DNA of 64,000 nt from an uncultured Clostridium sp. (GCA_948470565.1 CAOKPF010000001.1:5866-69865), one strand, 5' to 3'. Positions 7,677-58,420 are shown, counted from the first letter of the stretch. The notes: generated from the letters alone by a model not told the origin. Program-made: numbers and translations.

Positions 7677-7719
7677 AATATGTAATTTTGTATAAATTTT
7701 TTAAAAATTACATAATCTA

Positions 7720-7750
7720 CTTGACATAATATGTTGTTTTATATATAATA
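7720..7750 (+). promoter_or_regulatory. sigma-A-like promoter
   Basis: cTTGACAtaatatgttgttttataTATAAT, 17-nt spacer. Confidence 0.4.
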
Positions 7751-7801
7751 TTAAGTAGATAATAGTTGTAATACTTTAATAATTTAAAGGAGGAATTTTG
7801 T

Positions 7802-8199
7802 ATGATTATACAGGAAAAAGGTGGAAATATTTTAGAAAGTGGCGAAACTCGGATAGCTTTTGCAGTTAATATTGAAGGATTTAATGATGCAGGATTTGCC
7901 GGAACTGTTCAAGTAAGTATTGGCCAGAACTTGCAAACTATGGAAAATGTGAACTAGGTACAGTTTTGACTAAGTCTGTTAAAGGAATAACATTTTATGC
8001 ATTAGTATGTCATTCTTTGAAAACTGGCTGGAATAGTCAAATTGAAACTATAAGGAAATGTTTTGACTCTATAGAAACAGATGAGCCTATTGCAAGTATA
8101 TCCATTGGTACAGGATTGATAGGAGTATTAAGTGGAGCTGATTTTAATTTGATTAGAAGGGGGATGGAGCTTTCTAAAAAGAAAATTATACTTTATTAA
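7802..8199 (+). pseudogene. macro-domain (ADP-ribose binding/hydrolase-like) gene disrupted by a stop/frameshift
   Basis: Two adjacent frames (7802-7951 and 7966-8199) together resemble a macro domain: AGFAGTV...GxxLT...FYALVCHS...ASISIGTGLIGVLSGADF, compare SVAFPAISTGVYGYP. There is a stop codon at 7952 and a frame change before 7966. Confidence 0.45.
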
Positions 8200-8540
8200 A
8201 ATAAAAATCACTTTATAGTTAAAATGGAAATAGTAAAAGATAAATCAATATATTACTATTTTCATTTTTTGTTATTAAAAATCATTTTCTCTTTGTTGTA
8301 TAAATAATATTAAATTTTATGTATAAAGATGTATAGTCTTATAATATATTATACTAGTATATATTAATTTTATATTTTTATCATCAGGAATTAAGAGTAA
8401 CAAAATAATGTTTAGAAAATAGATGGTGACTGGTGCAAAAATGTAAAAATAAAATTGAAAATAGCTTTTTCGAATAAAATATAGCAAAAAAAGTCCGAAA
8501 ATAGAGCAAAGCAACACAATTAATATTATGTTAATTTTTA

Positions 8541-8570
8541 CTTAAGCTATTGACACCAACCTAATATGTA
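8541..8570 (+). promoter_or_regulatory. strong consensus promoter in a long noncoding region
   Basis: TTGACAccaacctaatatgtaTAAATAT (perfect -35, 17-nt spacer). No ORF downstream. Confidence 0.4.
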
Positions 8571-9252
8571 TAAATATAGCATACATTAACGTCATCTATA
8601 AATCTTAATTGAACTGTGTGTTCGTTAAAGTTGGTTAGTTTTTTTGATACTCAATACGCCTTTAAATCCATGTTGGATAAGATGGTACTTCGGGCTGTGA
8701 GGGTAAGAACCTTATTGCAAAAAACTGACAATATACACTAAGAAGTAAGACTTAAAAATACCTAAACTTTTTATTGTTTTTTATTCATTTGTTATAATTT
8801 ATACCAAAAAGAGAAGATAAATTTTCCCCTTTATCTTCTCGACATTTCAATGAAACTATAATCTTTACAAATAGAAGAAAAGAAATATAAAGTAACTTAC
8901 TTCCTATTTGTTATTTACATTATACAACACTTATTTTATTTGTCAATATTAGTTTACAATAAAAATACTAACTTTTATTGTTTAACTATCGTTATATGTC
9001 TGCTTTGTATATTTATATGGCTCTTCTGGAAAGTACGTGATGTTTATCATAATTAAAATAACTTACTTAATATTATTATTTTTATACTCTTATTTCTATA
9101 TGTTTATTATCTAATAAGAATTAATTGTCATACATTTTTTGTAAGAGCCATTTATATTTTACTACTAACAACAGTACAAGCTAAGTATATTAATTTTAAA
9201 CTTTTATCATTAAATTTCTTGCAATTTTTAAGTTTATATTGTATAATTAACG

Positions 9253-9338
9253 TATCACCAAGCGATAGAAAGCTATGAACCTTGTCAGGTCTGGAAGGAA
9301 GCAGCAATAAGTAGTTATTTCTATGTGTTTGGTGTATT
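9253..9338 (+). ncRNA. ffs: signal recognition particle RNA (small 4.5S-type, domain IV)
   Basis: ccttgtcaggtctggaaggaagcagcaataag matches the SRP domain IV consensus (CAGGUCCGGAAGGAAGCAGC, GGAA tetraloop). 5' atcaccaagcgatagaaa pairs with 3' tttctatgtgtttggtgtat. Promoter TTGCAA-17-TATAAT at 9219-9247. Conserved position immediately upstream of dnaX. Confidence 0.7.
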
Positions 9339-9357
9339 ATTGTATAAGGGTGAGAAT

Positions 9358-15809: not shown

Positions 15810-16145
15810 TTAAGTAACAAAAAAATTCCAAATTATCATACATACCATACCCATTGGAAATGAAAATGTATAAGTAGCAATAGGCAGCCAATAAACGATA
15901 TGTTTATATTGAGTATTGATTTTTTTATTTAATGCAACACAAATTGTAATAAAGGATATGAAAATAAAATGGTATACCCCAGCTTCAATATATGGACCAA
16001 ATAAGTAAGTAAAAAAATACCCATTTTCAAAACATTCTTGTTTAGCTTTTTCCAAATTACACTGTCCAATGAAAAATTCAAATAAAAATAATGATACAAT
16101 GTATAATAATATTATTAAAAGTTTATTCTTTGTTTTTTTTGACAT
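15810..16145 (-). CDS. small 3-TM membrane protein, paralogue copy 4 (diverged C-terminus)
   Basis: About 95% nucleotide identity to the three upstream copies. GGGAGG RBS then ATG (MSKKTKNK...). The last ~8 residues differ (IWNFFVT). Confidence 0.7.
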   Translation of the reverse strand: MSKKTKNKLLIILLYIVSLFLFEFFIGQCNLEKAKQECFENGYFFTYLFGPYIEAGVYHFIFISFITICVALNKKINTQYKHIVYWLPIATYTFSFPMGMVCMIIWNFFVT

Positions 16146-16235
16146 AGTCATACCTCCCAATTTTTAATGAATTTTATTGTAATAGCAAATTTATTGACGA
16201 CATTAAAAATAAATCTTTAATATTTTTGTTTTTAT

Positions 16236-16583
16236 TTATCCAATAATATATGTTTCAAAAAAATTACCGATTATCATACATACCATACCCATTGGAAATG
16301 AAAATGTATAGGTAGCAATAGGTAGCCAATAAATGATATGTTTATATTGAGTATCGATTTTTTTATTTAATGCAACACAAATTGCAATAAAGGATATGAA
16401 AATAAAATGATATACCCCAGCTTCAATATATGGATAAAATACGTAAAGTACAAAATATCCATTTTCACCATATTCTTGTACCGCTTTTTCAAAATTACAT
16501 TCTCCAACGAAAAATTCAAATAAAAATAATGATATAATGTATAATAATATTATTAAAAGTTTATTCTTTGTTTTTTTTGACAT
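16236..16583 (-). CDS. small 3-TM membrane protein, paralogue copy 3
   Basis: Tandem 438-bp unit. Start at MSKK after GGGAGG (ORF track extends to 16598). Confidence 0.7.
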   Translation of the reverse strand: MSKKTKNKLLIILLYIISLFLFEFFVGECNFEKAVQEYGENGYFVLYVFYPYIEAGVYHFIFISFIAICVALNKKIDTQYKHIIYWLPIATYTFSFPMGMVCMIIGNFFETYIIG

Positions 16584-16673
16584 AGTCATACCTCCCAATT
16601 TTTAATGAATTTTATTGTAATAGCAAATTTATTGACGACATTAAAAATAAATCTTTAATATTTTTGTTTTTAT

Positions 16674-17021
16674 TTATCCAATAATATATGTTTCAAAAAA
16701 ATTACCGATTATCATACATACCATACCCATTGGAAATGAAAATGTATAGGTAGCAATAGGTAGCCAATAAATGATATGTTTATATTGAGTATCGATTTTT
16801 TTATTTAATGCAACACAAATTGCAATAAAGGATATGAAAATAAAATGGTATACCCCAGCTTGAAAATATGGATAAAATAAGTAAGTAAAAGAGTACCCAT
16901 TTTCAAAACATTCTTGTTCAGCTTTTTCAAAATTACATTCTCCAATGAAAAATTCAAATAAAAATAATGATACAATGTATAATAATATTATTAAAAGTTT
17001 ATTCTTTGTTTTTTTTGACAT
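16674..17021 (-). CDS. small 3-TM membrane protein, paralogue copy 2
   Basis: Tandem 438-bp unit, identical RBS/start context. Confidence 0.7.
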   Translation of the reverse strand: MSKKTKNKLLIILLYIVSLFLFEFFIGECNFEKAEQECFENGYSFTYLFYPYFQAGVYHFIFISFIAICVALNKKIDTQYKHIIYWLPIATYTFSFPMGMVCMIIGNFFETYIIG

Positions 17022-17111
17022 AGTCATACCTCCCAATTTTTAATGAATTTTATTGTAATAGCAAATTTATTGACGACATTAAAAATAAATCTTTAATATT
17101 TTTGTTTTTAT

Positions 17112-17459
17112 TTATCCAATAATATATGTTTCAAAAAAATTACCGATTATCATACATACCATACCCATTGGAAATGAAAATGTATAGGTAGCAATAGGTA
17201 GCCAATAAACGATATGTTTATATTGAGTATCAATTTTTTTATTTAATGCAACACAAATTGCAATAAAGGATATAAAAATAAAATGGTATACTCCTGCTCC
17301 AATATATGGACCAAATATGTAAGTAAAAAAATACCCATTTTCAAAACATTCTTGTTCAGCTTTTTTAAAATTACATTGTCCAATGAAAAATTCAAATAAA
17401 AATAATGATATAATGTATAAAATTATAATTAAAAGTTTATTTTTTGTTTTTTTTGACAT
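17112..17459 (-). CDS. small 3-TM membrane protein, paralogue copy 1
   Basis: First copy. Its start abuts the stop of the upstream 342-aa gene, suggesting translational coupling. Confidence 0.7.
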   Translation of the reverse strand: MSKKTKNKLLIIILYIISLFLFEFFIGQCNFKKAEQECFENGYFFTYIFGPYIGAGVYHFIFISFIAICVALNKKIDTQYKHIVYWLPIATYTFSFPMGMVCMIIGNFFETYIIG

Positions 17460-17461
17460 AG

Positions 17462-18490
17462 TCATACCTCCCAATTTTTGATATTGAACTTAATTGTAAT
17501 AGCAAATTTATTAACAACTTTACATGAAGTACCTATCATTGCTAAATTATTACCAAAAGACGCAAAAAAAACTTTAGCATAATCATCATTGTTTATATAT
17601 TTTTCTATTTCTTGGAACTCTGTAAAATCATAAATATCTGATAATTCTATATCCAAATTCCAATTTCCGTTATTTTGTTTGTTTCCACAAATGTTTATAT
17701 AGCTATTGTGTAGTGCTAGAAACAGATCACCACTTTCAAAAGCTAATGATTCATTATTTTTACCTGTATTAAACTGTTCCTTATTACCATATTTTTTAAT
17801 AATTTCATTTACTTTATTTTTAAAATAAATATTTTCCTTTATTTTTTCTACAACTTTTCCCTCTGTAATAATTATATCACTAGGCTTTTTTTGTAATGAA
17901 TGATTTAAAAATTCAGAGGATATATCATAATTACCTAGTTTTAGAACTAGAACTGCACATTTTAATATATAATGTTGTAACATTTGGGTCATATCAGATA
18001 AATAAGGTTTTTTATTATAATATTTACTAAATGCAAAGTTAACAATGTTAAATGAAATATTTTGAATATCATCATATTCACCATTCATTACTTTTTCGAA
18101 AATTTCTTTATATTCCTTATATTTTTTATTAATTTCTGATGATTGTTTAAGCGTAATAGCATTATTACTATATAAATTTTTGGAAGTAGTAGTACTATTT
18201 ATTATATCAATATCTTTTTGTAATAATTTCTTATATTTATCATAACAACTCAAAGGTACTTCATTTAATAAATTTAAGGTTAAGTATCTATTTGTTAATA
18301 TTTGTCTTTGAGCAGTAGGCAAATTTTTCTTATTACATAATTTTAATATTTTTTTATTTAGTAACTCCTCACCTTTTAGATTTTTTACATCAGAAATATT
18401 TATAGAACAACACATTTTCTTTAAGCAACCTAAACCAAATGTATATTTGGTATTGCTAAGTTCTCTACCACATAGAGTACATCTTTTCAT
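17462..18490 (-). CDS. hypothetical cytoplasmic protein with N-terminal CxxC...C..C zinc-ribbon
   Basis: 342 aa, MKRCTLCGRELS...GLGCLKKMCC. Extended -10 (tggtataat) and GAGGTGA RBS upstream. No other motif recognised. Confidence 0.6.
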   Translation of the reverse strand: MKRCTLCGRELSNTKYTFGLGCLKKMCCSINISDVKNLKGEELLNKKILKLCNKKNLPTAQRQILTNRYLTLNLLNEVPLSCYDKYKKLLQKDIDIINSTTTSKNLYSNNAITLKQSSEINKKYKEYKEIFEKVMNGEYDDIQNISFNIVNFAFSKYYNKKPYLSDMTQMLQHYILKCAVLVLKLGNYDISSEFLNHSLQKKPSDIIITEGKVVEKIKENIYFKNKVNEIIKKYGNKEQFNTGKNNESLAFESGDLFLALHNSYINICGNKQNNGNWNLDIELSDIYDFTEFQEIEKYINNDDYAKVFFASFGNNLAMIGTSCKVVNKFAITIKFNIKNWEV

Positions 18491-25876: not shown

Positions 25877-26603
25877 TTAATTAAAATTAATTGAAAAATA
25901 ATTTTGCAATCCTAGAAAGATTCCCCAAGCAAGTTTATTTTGATAATTATCCGTTTTTAGTAAATTTGTCTCTTCTGCATTAGATAAAAATCCGCATTCT
26001 ATAATTACAGATGGTATTTTTACATGTTCCATTATATATACATTAGTAATTTTTAGAGGGACTCTATCGTTTTTAAATTCAATATTTTTATTTAGATTAT
26101 CCTGTATATATTGTGCTAGTATTTTGCTATTTTCATTATTTTCTTGGTAGAATGTCTGCCACCCTCTATAAATTTCGGATTCAGGATATTTATTTAAATG
26201 AATTGATACAAATACATCTGCATTACTGTTATTTCCAATTTCAACTCTGTTTTTTATGTCACTAACTTTTTTACTTTTAATACTTTTGCTATCTAATGAA
26301 TATATGCCATTTTCATCACTTCTAGTAAGAATTACACTAGCACCACTTTGTTCTATTAGTTTTTGTAGTTTTAATCCTATTGCTAAGTTTATTGCCTGTT
26401 CTGTTGTACCATAGTAGCCAACTGCTCCGTTCATCTGGAATACCATGTCCACTATCGATAATTATTACTTTATTTGTTATTGGAAGTGCATTTACCATTG
26501 CAACTTGATTAGGAATTTTGCGTATTATTCCATACGTTACAAGCGATATAACAATTAGTACAAGCGAAAATAATAATATTTTATTAAATTTAGTTAAATT
26601 CAT
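25877..26603 (-). pseudogene. N-acetylmuramoyl-L-alanine amidase (CwlD-like, Amidase_3) with +1 frameshift
   Basis: Signal peptide and IIIDSGHGIPDE in one frame; GAVGYYGTTEQAINL...VFVSIHLN in the next. Removing one nt near 26447 (gaaCgg) restores GHGIPDEGAVG, matching the GHGG.D.GAV family motif. Confidence 0.6.
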
Positions 26604-27084
26604 TGTATCACCTTATATATATATATGTTAATATATTTTAATATATCACATGTGAATTTAAATAATATTACTAAATTTAATTATAATTAAAAATTCGTAT
26701 AAAGATTAATAGGTTACATACTATTATTGGATTGCTTTAAACAAAAGTTGATATAATTTATCTTAAACACTGTTGAGAGAGAAAAAATCACTATGTATTC
26801 TAAGAAAAGGAATTGGAAGTCTCGGAATTTTAATAAAAAATGTATAAGATTTTTATTTATTATATCATAAAAAATATATAAACATATAATATCAATTATT
26901 TTAAGATAAAATAATTTTATAGTATAAAGTTAATATAAATATAAAAATACATATAAATGTAATATAAAGGAAAATAAATGTGAAAATTGCAAATTATTTG
27001 AGAATTTTTTGATTATAAAATTGACAAAAGAACATTGCATATATAAGGATTATATCAATCTAATACTATAAGAGTATTTAAGAT

Positions 27085-27470
27085 GTGAGTATATGCCATC
27101 TTTATTACTTCTAGTAAGAATACACTAGCACAACTTTATTCTATTATTTTTTGTAGGTTTAATTCTATTGTTAGGTTTATCGCTTGTTTTTTGTACCATA
27201 GTAGCAACAGCTCCGTTCATCTGGAATACCATGTCCACTATCTGTAATGATTAATTATTCGTTATTGGAAATACATTAATCATTCAACTTGACGAAAATT
27301 TGCGTATTATGCTATATGTTGCAATTGATATAATAATAGTAAAAATTAAATTTAGTTAAATTAATTGAATTATATACATTGATGTATTTTAATTTTACAT
27401 ACAAATCAAAAATTTGTATAAAGATTAATAGTCATTTTAGCTATTATTGATTATTTTTAAAAATCATATT
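27085..27470 (-). repeat. decayed partial tandem duplicate of the amidase 5' region and its upstream sequence
   Basis: About 85% identity with indels to 26296-26750. It includes the same gatgaacggagc frameshift context and no intact ORF. Confidence 0.6.
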
Positions 27471-27655
27471 AATTTTATACAATCAGAGATGTCGAAGTTT
27501 GTGATCAAAAATTAAAAAAAATAATATTATATTGTTTACAGATAAACAAAAGTTTGGTATAATGTATATATGAAAAATGTATTAACTAATTAGTTTTTAA
27601 AACCAAGAGTTAGAAATAGTATTTTTGTGTATAAATAAATTGTAAAGGAGTTATA

Positions 27656-32494: not shown

Positions 32495-32510
32495 ATCACA
32501 TAAATTACAA

Positions 32511-32538
32511 AAATAGGGGCTGAAAAAGCCCCTATTAT
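32511..32538. terminator. bidirectional terminator
   Basis: aaataggggctgaaaaagcccctatt hairpin between convergent genes. Confidence 0.7.
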
Positions 32539-32546
32539 ACAATTTA

Positions 32547-32759
32547 TTATTGGTTAGGTTGTTGAGATTGCATTTGGTTTGCAGTTTGAGCAACCATTTT
32601 TTTAACCATTTCACCACCGATAGAACCAGCTTGTTTTGATGTTAAATCACCATTATAACCTTGTTTTAAGTTAACACCTAATTCATTAGCAACTTCATAT
32701 TTGAATTTGTTAAGAGCTTGCTTTGCTTGTTTATTAGACATTTTACTATTTGATGCCAT
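32547..32759 (-). CDS. alpha/beta-type small acid-soluble spore protein
   Basis: KFKYEVANELGV...GGEMVKKMV SASP signature. GGAGGTG RBS before MASNS (ORF track start is 5 codons early). Confidence 0.85.
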   Translation of the reverse strand: MASNSKMSNKQAKQALNKFKYEVANELGVNLKQGYNGDLTSKQAGSIGGEMVKKMVAQTANQMQSQQPNQ

Positions 32760-33104
32760 TTGTTTCACCTCCAATTAATATTAATTTGTGAAGTTTTTAA
32801 ATAATTATACGAAGATATTATTTTTTTATAAAAATAAATTATATATTCTTTAAAAACAATTATAGCGTTATGATAATATTTTTTTGAATTTTAATATTAT
32901 TATGTATAATAAATATTATTTTGTTCTATATAGTACAATAAAAAGATTAAAGAAAATGAAAAAATATTATATATCTATTGGTTAAAAAATATTTCTAATA
33001 AAGAGATTTGCAAAATTTTGTTTTAGAAATACGAAGTTAATAAATAAAAATAGTGAGTACAGATAAAAAGTACTCACTATTGTAATAAACAACTGTTAAC
33101 TAAA

Positions 33105-33311
33105 TTATTGGTTAGGTTGTTGAGATTGCATTTGGTTAGCTGCTTGAGCAACCATTTTTTTAACCATTTCACCACCTATAGAACCAGCTTCTCTAGATGT
33201 TAAGTCACCATTATAACCTTGTTTTAAGTTAACACCTAATTCATTAGCAACTTCATATTTAAATTTGTTAAGAGCTTCCTTAGCTTGTTTGTTAGTCATT
33301 TTACTATTTGA
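33105..33311 (-). CDS. alpha/beta-type small acid-soluble spore protein (tandem paralogue)
   Basis: About 90% identical to the upstream copy; the flanking DNA is also duplicated. Terminator hairpin at 33052-33090. Confidence 0.85.
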   Translation of the reverse strand, partial: SNSKMTNKQAKEALNKFKYEVANELGVNLKQGYNGDLTSREAGSIGGEMVKKMVAQAANQMQSQQPNQ

Positions 33312-33433
33312 TGCCATTTGTTTCACCTCCGTTATTAAAATTAGTAAAACTAAAATAATGTTTTACACTAATAATTTGCGCGAATTTTGTAAAATAATAC
33401 TGGAAAAAAAAGGAATTTAATAAAAAATTAAAT

Positions 33434-33440
33434 TTCGACA
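33434..33440 (+). promoter_or_regulatory. Spo0A box (TTCGACA) upstream of spo0A
   Basis: Reverse complement of the TGTCGAA 0A-box consensus, about 100 nt upstream of the spo0A start. Confidence 0.4.
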
Positions 33441-33537
33441 AAACTCGATGACAAAATTACGCTAAAAGACTTGATTTTTTCAAAAAATTTTTGTATAATT
33501 GTCTTGCGTTGTTTTAGTAAGATAGATGGAGGATTAA

Positions 33538-49595: not shown

Positions 49596-50066
49596 ATGGC
49601 AATAAGGAAAATAAGGCTAGATGGAGATGAGATATTAAAAAAGAATGCTAGAAATGTAGATGTAATTGATAGTAAGATAAAAGAATTGGCACATGATATG
49701 TTAGATACAATGTATGCAAATGATGGTATTGGACTTGCAGCTTGCCAGGTTGGAATGTTAAAAGCCATGATTGTTTATGATGTACAATATATTGAGGAAG
49801 ATGAAATTAGGAAACCTATGGTATTAATAAATCCTAAAATTATATCTCGTTCTAAATCTATGTTACTTGTAGAAGAGGGGTGTCTTAGTTTTCCTAATAT
49901 ATATAATGATGTGAAAAGACATGAAAAAATAAAAGTAGAATATACGGATTTAAATGGGGAAAGAAAAGTATTATGTGCAAAGGGTATGGAAGCAATAGTT
50001 ATACAACATGAATGTGATCATTTAGAGGGAATTGTATTTTTAGATAGGGTAGAAAGAAAAAAATGA
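49596..50066 (+). CDS. def: peptide deformylase
   Basis: GIGLAA(C)Q, EGCLSFP and HECDHLEG motifs. Confidence 0.9.
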   Translation: MAIRKIRLDGDEILKKNARNVDVIDSKIKELAHDMLDTMYANDGIGLAACQVGMLKAMIVYDVQYIEEDEIRKPMVLINPKIISRSKSMLLVEEGCLSFPNIYNDVKRHEKIKVEYTDLNGERKVLCAKGMEAIVIQHECDHLEGIVFLDRVERKK

Positions 50067-51028
50067 AGCAAAAAGGGAAAAAAAATAAATTAAAAAAGAA
50101 AGTAATGAAAGTAAAAATAGAACAACCAGAAACTAAAATTTCTGATAATAGTAGCAGTAATGATACAGAAGTAATTAAAAAAAGTAATAAATATAAAAGA
50201 AGTATTCCCAAAAAAATATTTTATGCTATATTAATATGTATAATTCTTTCTATAATAGGAGCTGCAACATATTTTATACAGATATATTTAAATACTCCAA
50301 AGCAACTTACAAAAAAATACATTAAAGAATTAGGGGAAGAATTTAGCAGTGATTTAAATATATTTTATATAGAAAAGTATAATGTATATGGAGATGAAAA
50401 AGAAGATTATATATGTTTTATAAATAAAAATTATATATCAGATAAGATGTATGGTGATGTACAAATTCAGATAGTAGATGGAAATACAAGAGAAGTTATA
50501 ACATATGATACTAATAAAAATTTTGCAGAGGATTATCAAATATCTGTTATAAGGAATAATGAGCAAAATTATATATTTTTGCAAAGTGAAGAGGCTACTA
50601 ATGTTTCAATATTAACAATTCAAGATGGTCAGTTACATGACTTAATAAAAGAAAATTTTTCAGATGTTCCTAAAGGATATTATTATAGTTATAGTGTAAA
50701 TAATGAGGAAAATAAAATTGTAGTTACTTTAGATAAAAATGGAGTACCATATTTAGATTTAAATAATAATGTATTTGAATATAATTTGGATAATTTAAAT
50801 GTAGATTTATCACTTTATAGAAAGTCATATTTAAAGGAAAAGTACAATTACTATGAATTTGGTAATATAAATACTGAAAACCAATTGGAATTAGTTGGAA
50901 TTCAAAATATATTATACTTAAATGAGGTAACTACTGAAAATATTCCAAATACAATTGGAAAAATAAGAGTTACATTTGTAGTTAATGGAAATAAAATTAC
51001 ATTTAAAAATGTTGAAATAATTATATAA
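50063..51028 (+). CDS. hypothetical membrane-anchored protein
   Basis: Lys-rich N-terminus, one TM, extracytoplasmic domain. No recognised motif. Confidence 0.45.
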   Translation: MKQKGKKNKLKKKVMKVKIEQPETKISDNSSSNDTEVIKKSNKYKRSIPKKIFYAILICIILSIIGAATYFIQIYLNTPKQLTKKYIKELGEEFSSDLNIFYIEKYNVYGDEKEDYICFINKNYISDKMYGDVQIQIVDGNTREVITYDTNKNFAEDYQISVIRNNEQNYIFLQSEEATNVSILTIQDGQLHDLIKENFSDVPKGYYYSYSVNNEENKIVVTLDKNGVPYLDLNNNVFEYNLDNLNVDLSLYRKSYLKEKYNYYEFGNINTENQLELVGIQNILYLNEVTTENIPNTIGKIRVTFVVNGNKITFKNVEIII

Positions 51029-51062
51029 TAATAAGATAGTAATAAGATTATATTTTATTACT

Positions 51063-51740
51063 ATTTTATATGTATGACGGGCATGTCATAAATCTAGGGT
51101 GAAAGTCCCAAGAGGCGTATTTGTCGCGAACTCGATAGCAACTTGCAAAGCGTAAACCAGTAATGGAGCGTGAAAAGAAGCAATAGCGAAATCGTGGCTC
51201 TATGAATAAGAACTTGATATTAAGGCTTATTAGATGGATAAGTTGCCAAAACACAACAAAGTCCAAAAGACAAACGTAAATCTAATGGGTAAATCAAGAG
51301 AGTAAACGAGGAAAGAGTTATGACTTATCCCGTGAGGTCCTATAAGCGAATAAGTAGTAACAACGAATTATAGGAAGTCAGCAGAAGTCATAGTAGGTAG
51401 GAAACGAGCCAATAAAGGAAAGGAAGTCTCACGAATACTGAAGGACTGAACAATTTATAAGACTATGGAAGTCTTGAAATCTCTTGCAATTATCAGAATA
51501 AATAAAGATGAGAGGTTGAGCGTATCTTAATGGGTAATCCAAGAGATGATGTTGCAAGATAACGAAAAGAAAGGAAATAGACAAGCTATGAAAAAAAAAA
51601 ATAAAAAGCTAGGACGAAGAGGATTAGTTTTTGCCCTAGATTATTATTTAGCTTGAAATCAAACTTATAAATTGAACCGCCCATTGTCGAACAGAACGAT
51701 GCGGTGGTGTGATAGGGGATGAAAATTTTATTTTATAAAA
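51063..51740 (+). ncRNA. candidate large structured noncoding RNA (identity unresolved)
   Basis: About 700 nt with no credible ORF. GC content is markedly above the local background. The + strand is purine-rich. Internal near-repeats (cttaatgggtaa(a)tc(c)aagaga x2) and five RRAAGTCY motifs; several local hairpins. Confidence 0.4.
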
Positions 51741-51849
51741 TTTTCTACTCTACTCGATTAAAAAAAAAATTATAACACGCAGAGACAAGTATAATATAAG
51801 TGTTGATAATATTAACTAATAAAATAATTTTTTTAGGAGGACATAATTT

Positions 51850-52713
51850 ATGAATAAAAAAGAATTTGAAAATAGTCTATTAAGTAGAAATGTGGTAGAA
51901 GAGTACTTAAATAGTTCCAATGAAGAATTAGAAAAAACTTTTGGTAACCAATTTATGAGAACAGTAAATTTTGGTTCTCAGAATAATAAGGAGCATCAGT
52001 ATGATTTATTTGAACATATTTTACGAACTGTTGATAATATTCAAACAAATCATCTCTCAAGGCATGATGTTGTTATGATAAAGGTGGCAGCTTTTTTTCA
52101 TGATATAGGTAAACCAAATGTTGCAAAGGTTAATGAACAAACAGGTCAAACTCAGTATTTTAATCATGCTAAAGAGTCTGCAAAATTAGCAAAAGATATA
52201 TTAGAAAAGTTTGGCTTTAATAGTTTGGAAATAAAGGAAATAAGTTTTTTAATAGAAAGTCATGATGAGTTTATACAGATGAAAAATATTACAGATGCTA
52301 CACTTGCAAAAGTTTTAAATAAAAAAACAAAACTTGGTTTTACAATTTCCAATTTTAGGAAACTAATAATTTTATGTAGGGCTGATGTTATGGCGCAAAA
52401 AGATATTATAACAGAAAATGGAAATGTTATAGATACTAGAGTAAATAAGCTTGATAAACTTGAAATTATTGAAGCATTGTTGCCAAAATCAATTGTATTA
52501 ACACAGCAAAAAGAACTTAATAGATTAAAAAAACAGTTGAAGAATTTAGAAATTGTACCTAAACCTATAAATATTAATGGTAAAGTAGTAAATCAGGGGC
52601 AAATCGATAATTGGTATAGAATGAAAGATGAAGAAAAGATAAGTAGGGTAACAGATATTAAAGATAAAATTAATAAATTAAAAGAAGAGGTAAGATTTTT
52701 ATTAGAGAATTAA
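51850..52713 (+). CDS. HD-domain phosphohydrolase-like protein
   Basis: AAFFHDIGKP HD motif. 287 aa. Confidence 0.6.
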   Translation: MNKKEFENSLLSRNVVEEYLNSSNEELEKTFGNQFMRTVNFGSQNNKEHQYDLFEHILRTVDNIQTNHLSRHDVVMIKVAAFFHDIGKPNVAKVNEQTGQTQYFNHAKESAKLAKDILEKFGFNSLEIKEISFLIESHDEFIQMKNITDATLAKVLNKKTKLGFTISNFRKLIILCRADVMAQKDIITENGNVIDTRVNKLDKLEIIEALLPKSIVLTQQKELNRLKKQLKNLEIVPKPININGKVVNQGQIDNWYRMKDEEKISRVTDIKDKINKLKEEVRFLLEN

Positions 52714-52776
52714 TATAAAAATAAGCTTTAGTTAATTACATTGTATTAATTATTTTGTTATATAAAATAATTGTTT

Positions 52777-52813
52777 CTTATCAATTGGTCAGTTGTAACT
52801 GACCAATTGATAA
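52777..52813. terminator. bidirectional terminator (perfect palindrome)
   Basis: ttatcaattggtcagtt|gtaactgaccaattgataa. Confidence 0.6.
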
Positions 52814-52927
52814 ATATATTTCCAATACTTATTTTCAAGTTATATATATCTAATTTTTTGAGTAATTTCTGCTATTTTCATTTTACCATTAACAGTTAAA
52901 GTTTGAACGTAAAAATATATAGTTATA

Positions 52928-58344: not shown

Positions 58345-58420
58345 GGGCTATTAGCTCAGTTGGCAGAGCACTTGACTTTTAATCAAGTTGTCCGCAGTTC
58401 GAACCTGCGATAGCTCACCA
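58345..58420 (+). tRNA. tRNA-Lys (anticodon UUU)
   Basis: Cloverleaf: acceptor GGGCTAT/ATAGCTC, anticodon stem cttga/tcaag with loop cTTTtaa, T-arm GTTCGAAC, 3' CCA encoded. Promoter TTGACA-17-TATTAT at 58291. Confidence 0.9.

Follow-up and report, generated by a model that had tools for sequence, protein, structure and literature searches.

The intergenic gap of 821 nt at positions 51029-51849 of the window (the whole 64,000-nt stretch of DNA from an uncultured Clostridium sp. that was analyzed), which lies between the gene at 50063-51028 and the HD-domain gene at 51850-52713, contains a subgroup IIC (bacterial class C) group II intron. The intron is 687 nt long and is located on the plus strand at 51072-51758 (Table 1). 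Judging by its sequence, it has very probably lost its own protein (IEP) through an in-frame deletion in domain IV (D4) and is now most likely an immobile, impaired relic. A preliminary description had presented this region as a structured noncoding RNA (ncRNA) of unknown class; the large structured RNA, as opposed to a protein gene, is indeed there, but its class is a known one, represented in Rfam by RF02001 and RF01998. What had looked like an 800-nt "orphan structured RNA" is therefore best regarded as the remnant of a mobile element and not as a new ncRNA class to pursue.

Table 1. Features of the group IIC intron and its insertion site (window coordinates)
Feature	Position	Strand	Description
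Terminator-like hairpin	51031..51069	+	18-bp stem, all A/T/G-U; perfect 10-bp core ATAGTAATAA/TTATTACTAT
IBS1 AUAU	51068..51071	+	Last 4 nt of the 5' exon; only -1 and -3 can pair with EBS1
Whole ORF-less IIC intron	51072..51758	+	5' GUAUGACGGGCAUG to CUCUACUCGAU 3'; from Rfam and end-to-end alignment with L074, L128, L217, L144, L138
Domain I (D1)	51078..51332	+	Closing helix 51078-81/51329-32; holds the RF02001 match 51154-51321
Motif GGUGAAAGUCC			D1 hairpin
EBS1 loop GCCAAAACAC	51245..51254	+	EBS1 = AAAA at 51248-51251
Motif AAAGUCCAAA			3' side of the EBS1 stem
Domain II (D2)	51334..51379	+	Short hairpin; 10/10 pairs covarying or invariant
Motif GAAGUCAGCAGAAGUCAUAGUA			Spans D2, J2/3 and D3
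J2/3 linker AGCAGA	51380..51385	+	Invariant in the 22-sequence-family alignment A4
Domain III (D3)	51386..51447	+	Terminal hairpin carries 30 nt (51404-51433) inserted in the window copy only
Domain IV (D4)	51451..51674	+	11-bp closing stem 51451-61/51664-74; fold -47.8 kcal/mol, z = -4.3; alignment to relatives
IEP gene remnant	51588..51656	+	ATG-AAA, A-run junction (~51591-51601), last 19 codons NKKLGRRGLVFALDYYLA, stop
Domain V (DV)	51676..51708	+	CGC triad 51678-80 intact, G51679.U51705 wobble; upper helix disrupted
Domain VI (D6)	51710..51756	+	The bulged A at 51752 is the candidate branch point; the last intron base lies 6 nt further on
AT palindrome	51721-51745	+	Distal D6 stem
Expected ligated-exon junction			...TTTTATAT/TAAAAAAAAAA; TAAAAAAAAAA is the start of the 3' exon

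The class of the element was settled by a cmscan search of the whole window against Rfam, as had been proposed in the preliminary description: RF02001 (group-II-D1D4-3) matched on the plus strand at 51154-51321 (97.9 bits, E = 1e-18) and RF01998 (group-II-D1D4-1) at 51347-51446 on the same strand (38.8 bits). A blastn search against plasmids revealed 72% identity over 51053-51397 to the intron of Streptococcus agalactiae plasmid pGB2002, which carries an annotated ltrA reverse transcriptase (RT)/maturase, has a DV/DVI that matches RF00029, and is located directly after a GC-rich terminator; its likeness to the window includes DV/DVI. The DV/DVI model RF00029 itself found no match in the window even at E<=10. 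However, the intact relatives L074, L128, and L091 escape this model too, because DV has one additional 1-nt bulge and D6 is long in this lineage, so the failure of RF00029 in the window is not evidence against the identity of the element, and the model was set aside as uninformative with respect to DV integrity. No other copies of the intron were detected by blastn within the 64-kb window.

A scan of 185,579 species genomes for the 5'-terminal motif of the intron yielded at least 119 loci. Among the matches listed (>100 loci), a hairpin followed by a T-run is found upstream of the motif in almost every case, which is the signature of subgroup IIC. Most of the listed matches are located at contig ends, where a multi-copy repeat would be expected to break assemblies, and the window's own genome is absent from the matches listed. 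RT-encoding relatives of ~1.87 kb, homologous to the window element from end to end, are abundant in gut and rumen members of Clostridia and Bacteroidales. Identity to the window copy is 89-91% for L074 and 80% for L128; over D1-D2, it reaches 98% for L163 and L217, 97% for L144 and L211, and 96% for L138.

The intron has the conserved group II termini (5' GUAUG and 3' AU) and the six-domain architecture with covarying helices in D1-D3. In an RNAalifold analysis of 22 sequences, the family structure of D1-D3 comprised 86 pairs, of which 50 showed compensatory double changes. The window sequence violates a single real pair in D1-D3, and this violation is common to its relatives. The AGC of the J2/3 linker (51380-82) is equivalent to A287-G288-C289, the residues of the catalytic triple helix in the Oceanobacillus iheyensis intron O.i.I1 (PMC3669008). 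In the RF01998 match, the window has a 36-nt insert at the place where the model has 13 nt. At the D3 tip (51404-51433), relatives instead carry GGUAGGAAUACUG or a hairpin with a GA/U-run. The D3 tip of the window is most like that of L128, but its D1-D2 region is like those of L163 and L217, a pattern suggesting that family members have recombined. Set against its five closest full-length relatives, the window shows not one unique substitution in the 326 nt of D1-D2; as D1-D3 bear no unique damage, this copy is either young or homogenized by recombination with active copies.

The surroundings of the intron are also those of subgroup IIC. Introns of this subgroup are inserted behind intrinsic terminators and have no EBS2, relying solely on a short EBS1-IBS1 interaction (PMC8643678, PMC4424553, PMC4748821); their targeting, missing EBS2, catalytic triad, and bulge have been described previously (PMC8643678, PMC3669008, PMC4748821, PMC4424553). 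In the window, the hairpin at 51031-51069 (folding energy of -15.0 kcal/mol, z = -6.2) begins 3 nt past the stop codon of the gene at 50063-51028, and the intron starts 2 nt past the hairpin, i.e., in the sense orientation and immediately 3' of a terminator-type stem-loop. The IIC target motif consists of this stem-loop together with a 3- to 4-bp EBS1-IBS1 pairing. In 13 relatives, the EBS1 loop and the exon end covary (UAAA/UUUA, AAGA/UCUU, CAAA/UUUG, AAAA/UUUU, UAAG/CUUA, and AAAG/CUUU), with at least 4/4 pairs in 11 relatives and an imperfect 3/4 in two. In the window, AAAA faces AUAU and forms just 2/4 pairs, so the EBS1 element is present and yet misfits its present site. A 4-nt duplication was considered as the source of the poor IBS1 match and rejected, as no consistent scenario could be constructed.

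In D4, the window intron retains the leader, the Shine-Dalgarno sequence, and the start-codon region (ATG 51588) of the lost RT gene; an upstream in-frame ATG at 51546 opens the 36-aa sense ORF, for which an exact look-up returned no record. Mapping against L217, L163, L144, and L138 revealed a single internal, in-frame deletion of ~1.2 kb that extends from codon 3 to a point 19 codons short of the stop and leaves a remnant of 22 codons. The full-length relatives are 1863-1881 nt long (L074, with 1782 nt, itself lacks the ORF start) and encode a ~425-aa protein that combines RVT_1 with GIIM and lacks an endonuclease domain, as seen in L128. When the L128 IEP was used as a tblastn query, the sole match in the 64-kb window was the remnant (residues 404-425, E = 0.001), and no intact IEP was found within the window. 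Accordingly, the idea that the whole region might be a decayed protein-coding sequence applies solely to this 22-codon RT leftover inside D4. An endonuclease-less RT/maturase, a feature of IIC introns, is encoded by the full-length L128 but not by the window copy, which instead shows the features of an ORF-less group II intron: the ribozyme domains are kept, the IEP is gone, and its remnants are detectable. The junction created by the deletion (AGACAAGCTATG N8-38 ACGNAGAGGATTA) had 0 matches in the metagenome scan, so there is no sign of spread for this particular derivative.

Changes specific to the window copy are found in the catalytic core. A column-by-column alignment with 12 relatives identified a DV with the CGC triad, alongside the J2/3 AGC. 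Compared to the five closest full-length relatives, DV contains four unique substitutions, namely, 51687 C>U, 51693 G>A, 51695 C>A, and one at 51702. The first three convert the 3-bp upper helix GCC/GGC into G-A, U.G, and C-A, and the fourth places a C in the 1-nt bulge that is occupied by a U in the relatives. With 51713 G>U, which is seen in the window only and breaks the pair 51713-51753 adjoining the branch A, there are four unique changes in DV and one at the base of D6, i.e., 5 in ~41 nt. Among 13 aligned DV-DVI sequences, DV pairs 16-25 and 18-23 and D6 pair 43-94 are broken in the window alone. The minimum-free-energy fold of the window DV absorbs the AC bulge into the helix, whereas those of L128, L002, and pGB2002 are canonical; the canonical DV fold, with a tetraloop-closed upper helix and a 2-nt bulge, is thus lacking in the window. 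A second metagenome scan, in whose search pattern the upper helix's 5' strand was specified save for one C/U position, recovered 92 genuine DVs of this sub-lineage. The C/U position was a C in 92/92 of these, and the unconstrained 3' strand was GGCA(C/U) in every one. The C bulge is shared by one of the 92, so the change at 51702 is a tolerated polymorphism. In D6, A51752, within CUCUACUCGAU, is identical in all relatives and provides the bulged A that group II introns have 7-8 nt from their 3' end; the G at intron position -3, as in the window, is usual for IIC introns (PMC4748821).

The broken upper helix of DV, the broken D6 pair, and the 2/4 EBS1-IBS1 match point to a relic that is probably impaired in both splicing and mobility. 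In the proposed scenario, the IEP would have been lost through one internal in-frame deletion of ~1.2 kb in D4, after which efficient splicing or movement could occur only via a related protein acting in trans. The window copy would most likely be an immobile, catalytically impaired relic that is carried passively in read-through transcripts from the upstream gene to the HD-domain gene and has no dedicated host function. Elsewhere the intron is preserved: this holds for D1-D3, the J2/3 AGC, the D4 base including the region where the protein starts, the CGC triad, and the context of the D6 branch A. The damage in DV may be incomplete, since G.A and A+.C pairs could partly maintain its upper helix. 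Release of the 5' exon by hydrolysis is possible in IIC introns despite imperfect D6 geometry. The element belongs to subgroup IIC by descent and in the way it works; as the window copy lacks both the endonuclease-less RT and the canonical DV fold, it is classified here as an ORF-less, probably degenerate IIC derivative.

A less likely reading, with a minor but real probability, is that of a functional non-autonomous ORF-less IIC intron that is spliced, and possibly retro-mobilized in a MITE-like manner, by the RT/maturase of a full-length relative in the same genome. It would account for the intact D1-D3, J2/3, D4 base (with its Shine-Dalgarno sequence and ATG), and triad and for the absence of unique changes in D1-D2, and it draws on what is seen in other ORF-less relatives (L189, 651 nt; L155, 647 nt; L160, L194, and L206, 594 nt; and L197, 591 nt; as well as L022, L063, and L107 in Bacteroidales). 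The deletion junctions of these copies differ, yet each of them cuts out almost exactly the coding part. In the independent deletions of the window, L189, L155, L160, L022, L063, and L107, the excised segment runs from the IEP start codon, or just after it, to just before the stop, and the flanking parts of D4 are kept. Of the 27 copies of the sub-lineage whose length could be determined in the metagenome set, ~6 are ORF-less, a share biased upward by the easier assembly of short copies; ORF-less copies are not rare among the sampled relatives and originated several times by ORF-precise deletion. The 594-nt copies L160/L206 and L194 are 96% identical and share one junction (ATGTTGGGTCTG/GAGTAGGATTGAACC) but are located behind two different terminators, and the similar L197 is found behind a third one. 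A shared junction at distinct terminators means that an ORF-less derivative has moved, presumably with the help of a protein supplied in trans, and this is direct evidence of trans-mobilization in subgroup IIC.

Functioning in trans would also fit the contigs L129, L003, and L004, which come from two ENA samples and carry a variant intron at the same site. Compared to 49812-52815 of the window, their flanks are 100% identical over ~2.4 kb; all differences fall inside the intron, within which the contigs end. L129 has four point changes and a different D3 tip, L004 has three changes in D6, and the intron part of these contigs resembles the full-length family. The intron copies may thus be mosaics or recombinants, or repeats may have collapsed during assembly; the pattern suggests that closely related intron copies coexist in the organism or community, by way of assembly collapse or gene conversion. 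The variant contigs are the sole hint of a putative helper IEP. No empty site was found among the short contigs retrieved through look-ups of the flanking proteins, all of which break inside the intron. In PMC4424553 (with Simon et al. 2008 as reviewed there), bacterial group II introns that lack an ORF are said to be rare and usually to coexist with related IEPs. Against a trans-dependent but functional intron stand the upper helix of DV and the base pair adjoining the branch A, broken in the window only, the 2/4 EBS1-IBS1 pairs, the metagenome scan and the ORF look-up, in which neither the deletion junction nor the mini-ORF was found, and the lack of an IEP within the 64-kb window. An impaired relic remains the preferred reading.

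An improbable extension of these ideas combines two parts: that ORF-less IIC introns, far from being as rare as published accounts have it, form a common, MITE-like population moved in trans, and that the DV/D6 mutations of the window represent selected silencing of the ribozyme with retention of a protein-binding scaffold. With respect to the former, repeated ORF-precise D4 deletions in gut and rumen Clostridia and Bacteroidales may have been followed by terminator-to-terminator movement in trans; with respect to the latter, the scaffold may have been kept, e.g., to serve as a stable structure within a UTR or to act as an intron-protein decoy.

Exaptation as such, in which the ribozyme would have been silenced and the RNA kept in a regulatory or stabilizing role, as a long leader of the HD-domain gene or the upstream gene's 3' UTR, or else as an intron-protein decoy, is very improbable. 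The genes around the intron code for FtsK, peptide deformylase, an unannotated 321-aa protein, the HD-domain protein, YetF, a SleB-like protein, and YpeB, a set indicative of a spore-forming, low-GC Firmicute. The intron lies 91 nt upstream of the HD-domain gene on the same strand, and the unique mutations cluster in DV and the base of D6 (5 in ~41 nt) with none in the 326 nt of D1-D2, as would be expected if the ribozyme had been silenced and its scaffold retained. However, this clustering is a post hoc observation on few sites, conservation of the window copy was not seen beyond one species, and there are promoter-like sites, a kind of match that carries little weight, between the intron and the HD-domain gene. 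The earlier suggestion of a 5' leader dedicated to that gene is not supported, given the recurrence of the element behind >100 unrelated terminators elsewhere, with no link to HD-domain genes.

The window element is closest to class C introns, such as O.i.I1, B.h.I1, and that of pGB2002, with which it shares the compact D1 matched by RF02001, the CGC triad with a G.U wobble, the J2/3 AGC and the G at -3 (PMC3669008, PMC4748821), a putative single short EBS1-IBS1 interaction without EBS2, and sense insertion after a terminator hairpin (PMC8643678). As in the relatives of the window intron, class C proteins consist of RT and maturase only; the window copy has no IEP. It further differs from O.i.I1, B.h.I1, and the pGB2002 intron in the extra 1-nt DV bulge and the long AT-rich D6 of its lineage, in its own broken DV upper helix and branch-A-adjoining pair, and in the all-A/T stem of its target hairpin.

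Among ORF-less introns, those of subgroup IIB in Thermosynechococcus elongatus are spliced and mobilized in trans (PMC2882425, PMC8643678). The window element is likewise an IEP-less ribozyme from an IEP-encoding family, in this case with visible IEP remnants. Just as ORF-less copies have spread in T. elongatus, the window's relatives L160 and L194 are found at different sites; in contrast to the T. elongatus introns, the window copy belongs to IIC rather than IIB/CL, has a damaged catalytic core, and could depend only on a putative helper IEP in the same genome. Like C.te.I1, the stand-alone intron of Clostridium tetani, it is a group II intron that lacks an ORF and resides in a genome of the low-GC, Clostridia type (PMC4424553, PMC4024640), but C.te.I1 resides in a coding context and shows robust self-splicing and alternative splicing, whereas the window element is intergenic, located behind a terminator, and probably impaired. 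As finders based on RF00029 or on RT genes would miss both this element and its sub-lineage, ORF-less IIC introns may be under-counted.

Several sequence properties that had drawn attention to the region are real. The GC content is 33.5% over 51040-51840 and 36.9% over 51073-51730, compared to 26.1% for the window, and the plus strand is 61-63% purine. The ORFs in the gap are all short (three antisense ones of 66, 51, and 32 aa and a sense one of 36 aa), but it is not the longest such stretch: 26604-27655 (1052 nt) is longer and has no ORF of >=50 aa, and at a cut-off of 80 aa, 7677-9324 and 32500-33537 also exceed it in length. The reported near-duplication covers 19 nt (51283-51301 versus 51528-51546, 17/19 identical), with one copy in D1 and the other in D4. 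This near-repeat (CUAAUGGGUAAAUCAAGAGA versus CUUAAUGGGUAAUCCAAGAGA) is recognizable also in L074, L128, and the relatives with 96-98% identity; it may have arisen by chance, go back to an ancient duplication, or imitate a protein-binding site. Three of the five RRAAGTCY motifs are strict matches (51101, 51422, and 51467; 0.15 expected from their density in the window), and the other two require a looser pattern. Both hairpins noted earlier are present in the sequence, but the 5' one (tatgac/gtcata) is probably not part of the native fold. Its bases join the covarying long-range D1 helices 51078-81/51329-32 and 51085-95/51314-24, which displace it as a structural element; the 3' palindrome is the distal extension of the D6 stem. 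All motifs in the preliminary description map onto conserved intron elements. The idea that the region, having no relation to mobile introns, is a large structured ncRNA of a new kind (OLE-, ROOL-, or GOLLD-like) or a protein sponge rich in GGA, to which the ORF-free, GC- and purine-enriched sequence with its many local motifs had lent some appeal, can be practically dismissed in view of the strong group II covariance-model matches, the origin of those motifs in conserved intron elements, and a GGA content that is barely above expectation (14 observed versus 10 expected). A permissive Rfam scan of 50900-51950 at E<=10 detected no families besides RF02001 and RF01998 and was empty for OLE, ROOL, GOLLD, raiA, RNase P, and tmRNA; ARAGORN found no tmRNA either.

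Some other features were noticed along the way. No OLE RNA was detected in the window; L074, a goat-ileum Clostridia MAG, carries a complete one (RF01071, 356.8 bits, model positions 1-616) at 1064-1656 on the minus strand, ~4.5 kb from its intron. The AT-rich region at 26404-27655 of the window, which matches no Rfam family at the gathering threshold, contains a degraded second copy (27193-27245) of the 5' end (26404-26460) of the gene at 25877-26452. Directly downstream of a 342-aa ORF (17462-18490), a locus on the minus strand (15810-17474, with the tandem array at 15818-17512) holds four copies with a 438-nt period and 94% identity, each encoding a predicted membrane protein of 116-120 aa; it looks like a set of immunity-type paralogues. 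Apart from the intron, just two RNA genes were detected in the window, those for the bacterial small SRP RNA at 9249-9346 (+), with 66.3 bits, and tRNA-Lys(UUU) at 58345-58420 (+).
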